Origin: Escherichia coli
Lineage (GTDB): Bacteria; Pseudomonadota; Gammaproteobacteria; Enterobacterales; Enterobacteriaceae
DNA length: 6,146 nucleotides
Assembly: GCF_003334355.1 (NCBI RefSeq)
Contig: NZ_QOWP01000067.1
Direction: 5' to 3' (one strand)
Below the pieces are notes generated by a model. It did not search any database and was not told the origin of the DNA. It was given only the letters and a program-made list of their open reading frames with translations. Below, in pieces: positions 4,350 through 6,095 of this stretch. Both the position numbers and the translations under genes were made by a program. How positions within the stretch are numbered: the stretch's first letter is position 1; the number at the start of each line of letters is the position of its first letter.

Positions 4350-6095
4350 TTGCAAGGACGCGGAACATGCCTCATGTGGCGGCCAGGACGGCCAGCCGGG
4401 ATCGGGATACTGGTCGTTACCAGAGCCACCGACCCGAGCAAACCCTTCTCTATCAGATCGTTGACGAGTATTACCCGGCATTCGCTGCGCTTATGGCAGA
4501 GCAGGGAAAGGAATTGCCGGGCTATGTGCAACGGGAATTTGAAGAATTTCTCCAATGCGGGCGGCTGGAGCATGGCTTTCTACGGGTTCGCTGCGAGTCT
4601 TGCCACGCCGAGCACCTGGTCGCTTTCAGCTGTAAGCGTCGCGGTTTCTGCCCGAGCTGTGGGGCGCGGCGGATGGCCGAAAGTGCCGCCTTGCTGGTTG
4701 ATGAAGTACTGCCTGAACAACCCATGCGTCAGTGGGTGTTGAGCTTCCCGTTTCAGCTGCGTTTCCTGTTTGCCAGCCGGCCCGAGATCATGGGGTGGGT
4801 GCTGGGCATCGTTTACCGCGTCATTGCCACGCACCTGGTCAAGAAAGCGGGCCATACCCACCAAGTGGCCAAGACGGGCGCGGTCACCCTGATCCAGCGT
4901 TTTGGATCGGCGCTCAATCTGAATGTTCACTTCCACATGCTGTTTCTCGACGGTGTGTATGTCGAGCAATCCCACGGCTCAGCGCGTTTCCGCTGGGTCA
5001 AGGCGCCGACCAGCCCAGAGCTCACCCAGCTGACGCACACCATCGCCCACCGGGTGGGTCGCTATCTGGAACGGCAAGGCCTGCTGGAACGGGATGTCGA
5101 AAACAGCTATCTGGCCTCGGATGCGGTGGATGACGACCCGATGACACCCCTGCTGGGGCACTCGATCACTTACCGTATCGCTGTCGGTTCACAGGCGGGG
5201 CGAAAGGTGTTCACTTTGCAAACTCTGCCGACCAGTGGTGATCCGTTCGGTGACGGGATTGGCAAGGTAGCCGGGTCCAGCCTGCACGCCGGCGTGGCGG
5301 CCAGGGCCGATGAACGCAAGAAGCTCGAACGGCTGTGCCGGTACATCAGCCGCCCGGCGGTATCCGAGAAGCGGCTGTCGTTAACACGAGGCGGCAACGT
5401 GCGCTACCAGCTCAAGACGCCGTACCGGGACGGCACCACGCACGTCATTTTCGAACCATTGGATTTCATTGCAAGGCTGGCCGCCCTGGTACCGAAGCCC
5501 AGAGTCAACCTAACCCGCTTCCACGGGGTGTTCGCACCCAACAGTCGGCACCGGGCGTTGGTCACGCCGGCAAAACGGGGCAGGGGCAACAAGGTCAGGG
5601 TGGCTGATGAACCGGCAACACCAGCACAACGGCGAGCGTCGATGACATGGGCGCAACGGCTCAAGCGTGTTTTCAATATCGACATCGAGACCTGCAGCGG
5701 CTGCGGCGGCGCCATGAAAGTCATCGCCTGCATTGAAGACCCTATAGTGATCAAGCAGATCCTTGATCACCTGAAGCACAAAGCCGAAACCAGCGGGACC
5801 AGGGCGTTACCCGAAAGCCGGGCGCCACCGGCTGAGCTGCTCCTGGGTCTGTTTGACTGACGAGCCTGAAGGCCAACGATACCAATCAAAATGCTGCGTT
5901 CACAGCGCCGCGGCAGGGATCCGCCGTGCTGGTTGTCGGAAAAGGAGCCGCTAGTGGGAAAGAGGAGGGTAAATTTTCAGCGTTGCTGGCTCCCCGTCAG
6001 CCGGATTGGGTTGCATCGCAGGGGTGTCGAAAGAGTCAACTGCGGTCCAAAGCTGTTGGACTTGGGTGAAAAGGGCGTTTATTCTTCCTATACGT
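4350..6095 (+). mobile_element. ISCR2 element (5' terIS boundary uncertain, about 4324-4366; oriIS end about 6095, equivalent to position 26)
   Basis: Transposase CDS plus about 235 bp of 3' sequence ending in '...gggcgtttattcttcctatacg', which resembles IS91/ISCR oriIS termini as I recall them; directly abuts the truncated glmM and sul2; composition shifts to high GC near 4350. Confidence 0.7.
4367..5860 (+). CDS. ISCR2 rolling-circle (IS91-family, HUH) transposase, 497 aa
   Basis: Recognised as the ISCR2 transposase; N-terminal Cys cluster CESCHAEHLVAFSCKRRGFCPSCG (zinc-binding), HUH-type motif in NVHFHMLFLDGVY, candidate catalytic tyrosines in RYQLKTPYRDG; RBS 'aagga' 8 nt upstream. Confidence 0.95.
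   Translation: MPHVAARTASRDRDTGRYQSHRPEQTLLYQIVDEYYPAFAALMAEQGKELPGYVQREFEEFLQCGRLEHGFLRVRCESCHAEHLVAFSCKRRGFCPSCGARRMAESAALLVDEVLPEQPMRQWVLSFPFQLRFLFASRPEIMGWVLGIVYRVIATHLVKKAGHTHQVAKTGAVTLIQRFGSALNLNVHFHMLFLDGVYVEQSHGSARFRWVKAPTSPELTQLTHTIAHRVGRYLERQGLLERDVENSYLASDAVDDDPMTPLLGHSITYRIAVGSQAGRKVFTLQTLPTSGDPFGDGIGKVAGSSLHAGVAARADERKKLERLCRYISRPAVSEKRLSLTRGGNVRYQLKTPYRDGTTHVIFEPLDFIARLAALVPKPRVNLTRFHGVFAPNSRHRALVTPAKRGRGNKVRVADEPATPAQRRASMTWAQRLKRVFNIDIETCSGCGGAMKVIACIEDPIVIKQILDHLKHKAETSGTRALPESRAPPAELLLGLFD

Follow-up and report, generated by a model that had tools for sequence, protein, structure and literature searches.

We analysed a 6,146-nucleotide stretch of Escherichia coli DNA (contig NZ_QOWP01000067.1 of assembly GCF_003334355.1; hereafter the window) which carries the transposable element ISCR2, also named ISVsa3, and examined a short palindrome, GTCCAA-agctg-TTGGAC, close to the end of the element that holds its origin of rolling-circle transposition (oriIS). 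The explanation that we favour, and to which we give slightly better than even chances, is that the ISCR2 origin is a conserved terminal block at positions 6058 to 6095 which is read by its sequence, and that the palindrome is a lineage-specific dyad composed of the inner edge of this block and of non-conserved upstream sequence. The palindrome is most likely not a defining structural element of the ISCR2 oriIS and would be no more than an optional accessory to the conserved end.

The element is ISCR2, and the terminus gggcgtttattcttcctatacg (6073 to 6094) belongs to its oriIS-type end. The open reading frame (ORF) at 4367 to 5860 on the plus strand, rcr2, encodes a HUH-Y2 transposase of 497 amino acids, Rcr2, which is 100% identical to the 'IS91-like element ISVsa3 family transposase' and contains the domains PF14319 (IS91 zinc-binding) and PF04986 (Y2 transposase). 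It is followed on the same strand by the 3′ non-coding region including oriIS (5861 to 6095), whose right boundary at 6095/6096 is the endpoint of matches in more than 2000 plasmid records; beyond it, the plasmid copies have different flanks (a glmM remnant, DUF3363, and others). For the left boundary, window positions 3600 to 4500 were used as query, and the matches to thousands of plasmid copies started at query position 644/645 or 649/650, corresponding to window positions 4243 to 4249. These boundaries agree with the ~120 bp upstream and ~240 bp downstream of the ORF reported for ISCR2 (PMC2725981). The end thus combines the 497-residue Rcr2, a distance of ~240 bp to a fixed boundary, and the consensus terminus ...GTTTAnnnnnnCCTATAC.

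The original prediction had placed a perfect inverted repeat with 6-bp arms at 6045 to 6061, about 35 bp inside this terminus, and had proposed it as a candidate structural element of oriIS. The description proved correct to the base, as an inverted-repeat scan returned arms of 6 nt that are 100% complementary and separated by 5 nt, within the local sequence ...gagtcaactgcgGTCCAAagctgTTGGACttgggtgaaaagggcgtttattcttcctatacgttg..., and the right arm ends 34 to 35 bp from the 6095/6096 boundary. When the last base of ...CCTATAC (6093) is numbered −1, the palindrome covers positions −49 to −33, with the left arm GTCCAA at 6045 to 6050 (−49 to −44), the loop AGCTG at 6051 to 6055, and the right arm TTGGAC at 6056 to 6061 (−38 to −33). 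We refer to this stem-loop as hairpin A. The assignment to the ISCR2 oriIS end and the subterminal position were therefore right; the conclusion that the palindrome is a structural element is unsupported, since the stem is at chance level, lies mostly outside the conserved block, shows no clear compensation, and is missing in about one half of those ends that have a near-identical core.

The relatives came from a genome scan (80 loci with 59 to 100% transposase identity), from look-ups of relatives with 86 to 91% identity (L090 to L099), and from a metagenome pattern scan that was designed to leave out ISCR2 itself (L100 to L116). In 36 unique end-anchored sequences, conservation was found only from −26 to −1, and the column information content was at background further in. 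This family-wide oriIS core, GAAAAGGGCGTTTATTCTTCCTATAC (6068 to 6093, plus strand), was present in the 36 to 49 unique relatives, also in ISCR1 and three other ISCR elements, and was recognisable in IS91. Within the ISCR2-like clade, an alignment of 14 sequences (A1) and further ends extended the conserved block GGACNTGGGTGAAAAGGGYGTTTATTCTTCCTATAC (6058 to 6093, plus strand) inward to −36 (GGACNTGGG...). Only the GGAC of the right arm, which forms the inner edge of the block, is thereby included, and the two T's of the right arm, the loop, and the entire left arm lie outside. In A1, the right-arm positions G53, A54, and C55 were largely conserved and the two T positions varied (C/G/T and T/A/C, respectively). 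The left arm read GTCTAC, GACTAC, GTCAGA, AGCAGA, GTCATC, or GTCAGC in relatives, facing (C/G/T)(T/A/C)GGAC, and these changes were uncompensated.

We propose that the working part of the origin is the terminal block at 6058 to 6093, with the copy boundary at 6095/6096. Rcr2 presumably recognises this block by its sequence and would nick it at or just beyond ...CCTATAC(GT), by which rolling-circle, one-ended transposition would be started. The right arm of the palindrome would supply GGAC to the block, and the left arm would be upstream sequence whose complementarity, seen in ISCR2 and the elements nearest to it, is happenstance. In the single-stranded state the two arms can form a weak 6-bp hairpin competing with the overlapping pairing CAACtGC/GCtGTTG, and whatever this hairpin adds to the working of the origin would be auxiliary and not essential. 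Transposition assays for ISCR elements had not been reported as of 2018 (PMC6218425).

The palindrome is no more than what chance readily gives. In dinucleotide shuffles, a perfect stem of at least 6 bp with a loop of 3 to 10 nt was obtained with P = 0.29 for the 235-nt 3′ non-coding region of ISCR2 and with P = 0.056 for the 50-nt stretch from −70 to −21. As single-stranded DNA, hairpin A has a free energy of −4.9 kcal/mol, and the z scores of the ISCR2 fold against shuffles ranged from −0.12 to −1.25, varying with segment and strand. In a 37-nt local fold, hairpin A accounted for 11% of the ensemble, and the centroid was another, overlapping pairing of the CAACtGC/GCtGTTG type. Neither for ISCR2 nor family-wide did stability or frequency exceed composition-matched chance. 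The opposite, terIS-side non-coding region, which extends from the left ISCR2 boundary as set by the start of plasmid homology to the start of rcr2 (4244 to 4366, plus strand), gave fold z scores of −0.27 and +0.29, and no comparable palindrome was found in it.

Comparison across relatives gave a corresponding picture. With G-U counted as paired, 76.5% of the cells of hairpin A in A1 were paired, compared to 72.3 ± 2.0% in shuffles; changes on both sides occurred at only one of the six pairs, and the pairs 39-54 and 41-52 were each broken in 6 of the 14 sequences. The RNAalifold consensus of the 14 relatives contained no helix in the palindrome region. A second set comprised 26 unique ends with at most two mismatches in the 20-nt core (row L103, an off-target match whose true end is too close to the contig start, was ignored). 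Nine of these ends, all from one subclade, had a perfect stem of at least 6 bp, three had a 5-bp stem, and 12 had none; the stemless rows were L001, L013, L040, L061, L093, L094, L098, L099, L100, L101, L107, L111, and L115. Similarity of the transposases did not separate the two groups, as the stemless L001, L011, and L012 share 85% identity with Rcr2 and the hairpin-bearing L095 and L097 share 86% and 87%, respectively. Among 49 unique ends, eight stems of at least 5 bp were observed between −65 and −27 compared to 7.5 expected, and the mean z score of the minimum free energy was −0.14 ± 0.15, the same as in upstream control regions. These family-wide fold tests were performed with DNA parameters; an earlier run with RNA parameters gave the same result.

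A functional subterminal hairpin is nevertheless an alternative that deserves consideration, although we regard it as rather doubtful. In this case the region from 6036 to 6061 would fold, either as hairpin A or in an overlapping register B, once the strand is displaced or circularised in single-stranded form, and Rcr2 would use the fold to recognise oriIS or to position itself for nicking there. Hairpin B, found by folding and in relatives, pairs CAACTGC (6037 to 6043) with GCTGTTG (6052 to 6058) and thus spans 6037 to 6058; in ISCR2 it contains a central T:T mismatch, and A and B are mutually exclusive. For this alternative speaks the position of the palindrome within the last 82 bp, a length sufficient for oriIS function in IS91 (PMC13181058), a likeness that is one of position only. 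Only the single-stranded DNA circle of IS91 is competent for insertion (PMC13181058). Furthermore, the nine unique ends of the subclade keep a stem of at least 6 bp despite nearby substitutions, and the register appears to be switched rather than pairing lost, with only B present in L095, L102, and L105 and only A in ISCR2. However, about half of all ends that combine a near-identical core with equally similar transposases possess no hairpin, the family as a whole shows no excess of hairpins, clear covariation is absent, the ISCR2 hairpin itself is weak and within the range of shuffles, ISCR1 has no equivalent, and even in IS91 the need for the palindromes is putative.

Several observations weigh against the explanation that we favour. 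Two imperfect subterminal palindromes have been described in oriIS of IS91 and of IS801, and one is 'presumed' in that of IS1294 (PMC13181058), and ISCR ends are said to include sequences that form secondary structures (PMC13393415). In the −65 to −27 region of the 49 unique ends, five stems of at least 6 bp were observed compared to 1.8 expected, a number reached in 9 of 200 shuffle sets; all five are related by descent. In L090, an A-to-C change in the loop lengthens stem A to 7 bp, and in L095 a G-to-A change gives an 8-bp B stem (z = −3.4). Every apparently intact lineage of the ISCR2 subclade retains at least one stem of 6 bp or more at the right-arm region, be it A, B, or both. Neither register is intact in L066, a decayed ISCR2-like copy (L066:3066-3147) whose terminus is likewise destroyed, with CGCCAG in place of the terminal CCTATAC, and whose transposase match is shortened.

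A more specific form of the same idea would be that the 26-bp dyad region at 6036 to 6061 provides two exclusive hairpins, A (GTCCAA/TTGGAC) and B (CAACAGC/GCTGTTG), which share the right arm GCTGTTGGAC, and that selection in the ISCR2 subclade keeps at least one of them, with switching between registers. Register B is perfect, with 7 to 8 bp, in L095 and in L102/L112, where hairpin A is broken, and has 6 bp in the group L097/L104/L105/L106, most members of which keep A too; in L105, a C-to-T change in an arm of A breaks this stem and leaves B as the only one. The pattern is suggestive, but not significant, because the dyad is shared by descent and the substitutions are few, and we consider such selection unlikely. 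Dyad regions of this type were also met in two unusual contexts. In L104:9071-9163, and identically in L114, a 76-bp fragment of an ISCR2-like oriIS, dyad region included, is directly adjoined by another ISCR-type end (GTTTATGCTTCCTATTC); this second end lies downstream of an apparently split IS91-family ORF (7483 to 8421 and 8443 to 8934), so that two origin ends stand in tandem. L109 and L110 (match on the minus strand at L109:4335-4368) are homologous to the ISCR2-like end only from about −53 onwards, a point that coincides exactly with a B-type dyad (CCAACCAGC g GCTGTTGG), and the upstream sequence is unrelated and AT-rich; these may be solo oriIS fragments or elements with a different 3′ region.

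Conservation among copies of ISCR2, whose lack had been named as grounds for giving up the hairpin, turned out to be powerless as a test. The palindrome was indeed invariant in the copies fetched, yet 2907 of 2926 plasmid records were at least 99% identical over 5861 to 6100, and the result is uninformative because the whole element is equally uniform. As a separate observation, NZ_MW390538.1 contains at 84687 to 84728 a stand-alone stretch of 42 bp that is identical to window 6055 to 6096, a solo oriIS remnant that spans the last loop base, the right arm, the terminal block, and the boundary and is devoid of the left arm.

The right arm was also considered as part of a promoter. TTGGAC would then be the −35 hexamer of a weak outward sigma-70 promoter (TTGGAC-N16-TTTATT, 6056 to 6083) that reads into captured genes as the counterpart of PCR1-2 of ISCR1, and the left arm would be complementary to it by coincidence. 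The oriIS region of ISCR1 carries two functional outward promoters, of which PCR1-2 has the sequence TTCGGA-N18-TTTATA (PMC6218425); its −10 hexamer lies in the same conserved core GTTTAT(A/T), its −35 hexamer lies just past the subterminal GATAC, and the TTGGAC/TTGGGT of ISCR2 is thereby situated at the equivalent position. However, in relatives the TTG of the putative −35 hexamer varies (CTG, GTG, GCG, CAG, CTC) and GGAC is kept, which is the opposite of what is expected for a −35 element. A consensus scan of 5861 to 6146 found no promoter-like site: the two hexamers match the consensus at 3/6 and 4/6 positions, and this 7/12 match is below the threshold of the scan, although no worse than that of the functional PCR1-2 (PMC6218425). 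In addition, the downstream sul2 gene is located on the opposite strand in this plasmid. We therefore hold an outward promoter at this site to be quite improbable. An intrinsic terminator was rejected as a candidate, as there is no T run on either strand and the scan returned only an unrelated site at 5906 to 5893 on the minus strand.

The form of the palindrome, a 17-bp dyad, and the partial conservation of the G.C..A / T..G.C positions in A1 would also be compatible with a double-stranded operator, GTCCAA-N5-TTGGAC, for a dimeric regulator encoded by the host or by the element. We rate this as very improbable: ISCR2 has a single ORF and no regulator gene, the hexamer pair is unique in the plasmid (TTGGAC occurs once more, unpaired, at 1725), no similar site exists at the terIS/promoter end, and the half-sites are not co-conserved in relatives.

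The ends used for comparison were those of ISCR1 (L083), of three other ISCR elements (L084 to L086), and of IS91 (L082, from the enterotoxigenic E. coli plasmid p948). The original prediction had invoked hairpins near the conserved end of IS91-family origins; imperfect subterminal palindromes have indeed been described for the family (PMC13181058), but when the ends of ISCR2, ISCR1, and IS91 were compared, no equivalent stable hairpin was present in ISCR1 or IS91, nor in the three other ISCR elements, and the oriIS regions of ISCR1 and IS91 folded worse than shuffles (z = +1.1 to +2.6). ISCR1 is a sister element with ~60% transposase identity, as estimated via L077, and has the same terminal core, GGTGGTTTATACTTCCTATAC. 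Its subterminal 30 to 60 bp have a function other than that of a hairpin, with the outward promoters PCR1-1 and PCR1-2 (PMC6218425). It differs from ISCR2 in having no palindrome at the equivalent place, the best stem being 3 bp and the fold z scores +1.1 and +2.6; in ISCR2, the spacer is shorter by 8 nt and the promoter-like hexamers are weaker and not conserved. The elements IS91, IS801, and IS1294 share with ISCR2 the HUH-Y2 rolling-circle superfamily, the location of the end downstream of the transposase gene, and a palindrome within the last ~80 bp. The IS91 core ...GGGGCTTTAAATTCCTATC(GAT) is homologous to the ISCR2 core ...GGGCGTTTATTCTTCCTATAC(GT), whereas the inner IS91 dyad GGGTGTT/AATATCC at about −64 to −46, which requires two G:T pairs, is homologous to the ISCR2 dyad neither in position nor in sequence. 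The dyad of ISCR2 is perfect but short and not common to most of its close relatives; for IS801 and IS1294, the comparison is with the published description of the palindromes (PMC13181058).

More distant HUH systems offer likewise partial parallels. Helitrons, as exemplified by Helraiser (PMC4778049), are HUH-Y2 rolling-circle transposons with a short subterminal hairpin, but that hairpin is located at the terminating end, where it acts as a terminator signal, and the ISCR2 palindrome is located at the initiating end. In the IS200/IS605 family (PMC5027513), the Y1 enzyme TnpA, which is also of the HUH type, acts on single-stranded ends with subterminal secondary structure. The hairpins of that family are present at both ends, strongly conserved, and required, in contrast to the ISCR2 dyad, which is weak, confined to one end, and not conserved across elements with near-identical ends.

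Some further features of the ends were noted. Many ISCR lineages contain a putative subterminal TATAC-like motif (GATAC, AATAC, or GTAC; TGGAC in the ISCR2 clade), which mostly ends ~41 nt (or ~33 nt) from the terminus, for example in L083:2871-2877, L042, L018, L022, and L039, and at window 6057 to 6061. In ISCR1 this motif overlaps the −10 box TAAGAT of PCR1-1, and a comparable position in IS91 is occupied by AAATATCC. At the terminus itself, identity among ISCR2 copies extends 2 to 3 nt beyond TATAC (TATACGT; window 6094 to 6096). The first flanking bases in relatives are mostly TC, CC, GC, or GT, and IS91 (L082:22650-22662) reads CCTATCGAT ahead of GAAC, its known target. Cleavage may thus actually take place a few bases past TATAC, or a target preference may reside there.

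The window represents a circular sul2/ISCR2 plasmid of ~6069 bp that was read beyond its own start. By sequence comparison, positions 1 to 77 (plus strand) are a repeat of 6070 to 6146, so that there are two copies of the oriIS core, with their ends at 24 and 6093. The whole plasmid (1 to 6069) contains 21 perfect stems of at least 6 bp with loops of 3 to 10 nt, compared to 10.1 ± 3.4 in dinucleotide shuffles; it is enriched overall in short hairpins, and the other stems lie outside the ISCR2 3′ region. An ORF with an ATG start at 5891 to 6142 (plus strand) opens 31 nt past the rcr2 stop codon and runs through the oriIS end. In floR-type contexts (L091:1907-2791), annotation pipelines join an ORF of this type to a downstream DUF3363 (relaxase-like) remnant, so that the annotated 'DUF3363 protein' starts within ISCR2, which is probably an annotation artefact.

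As a carrier of resistance genes, sul2, floR, and tet(X) among them, ISCR2 is one of the most common. Neither the element itself nor the general idea that IS91-family origins contain subterminal palindromes is new (PMC13181058, PMC13393415); our literature search for a hairpin or an outward promoter specific to ISCR2 returned nothing. A palindrome that is required as a hairpin would delimit the minimal oriIS and offer a handle for transposition assays. A two-register dyad, if true, would mean that a Y2 HUH transposase has at its origin end an evolving element for recognition of the single strand, or a conformational one, of a kind undescribed for ISCR elements. As far as the present sequence evidence goes, the palindrome appears unsuited as a diagnostic or mechanistic feature, and the useful definition of the ISCR2 origin would be the conserved terminal block of ~36 bp.

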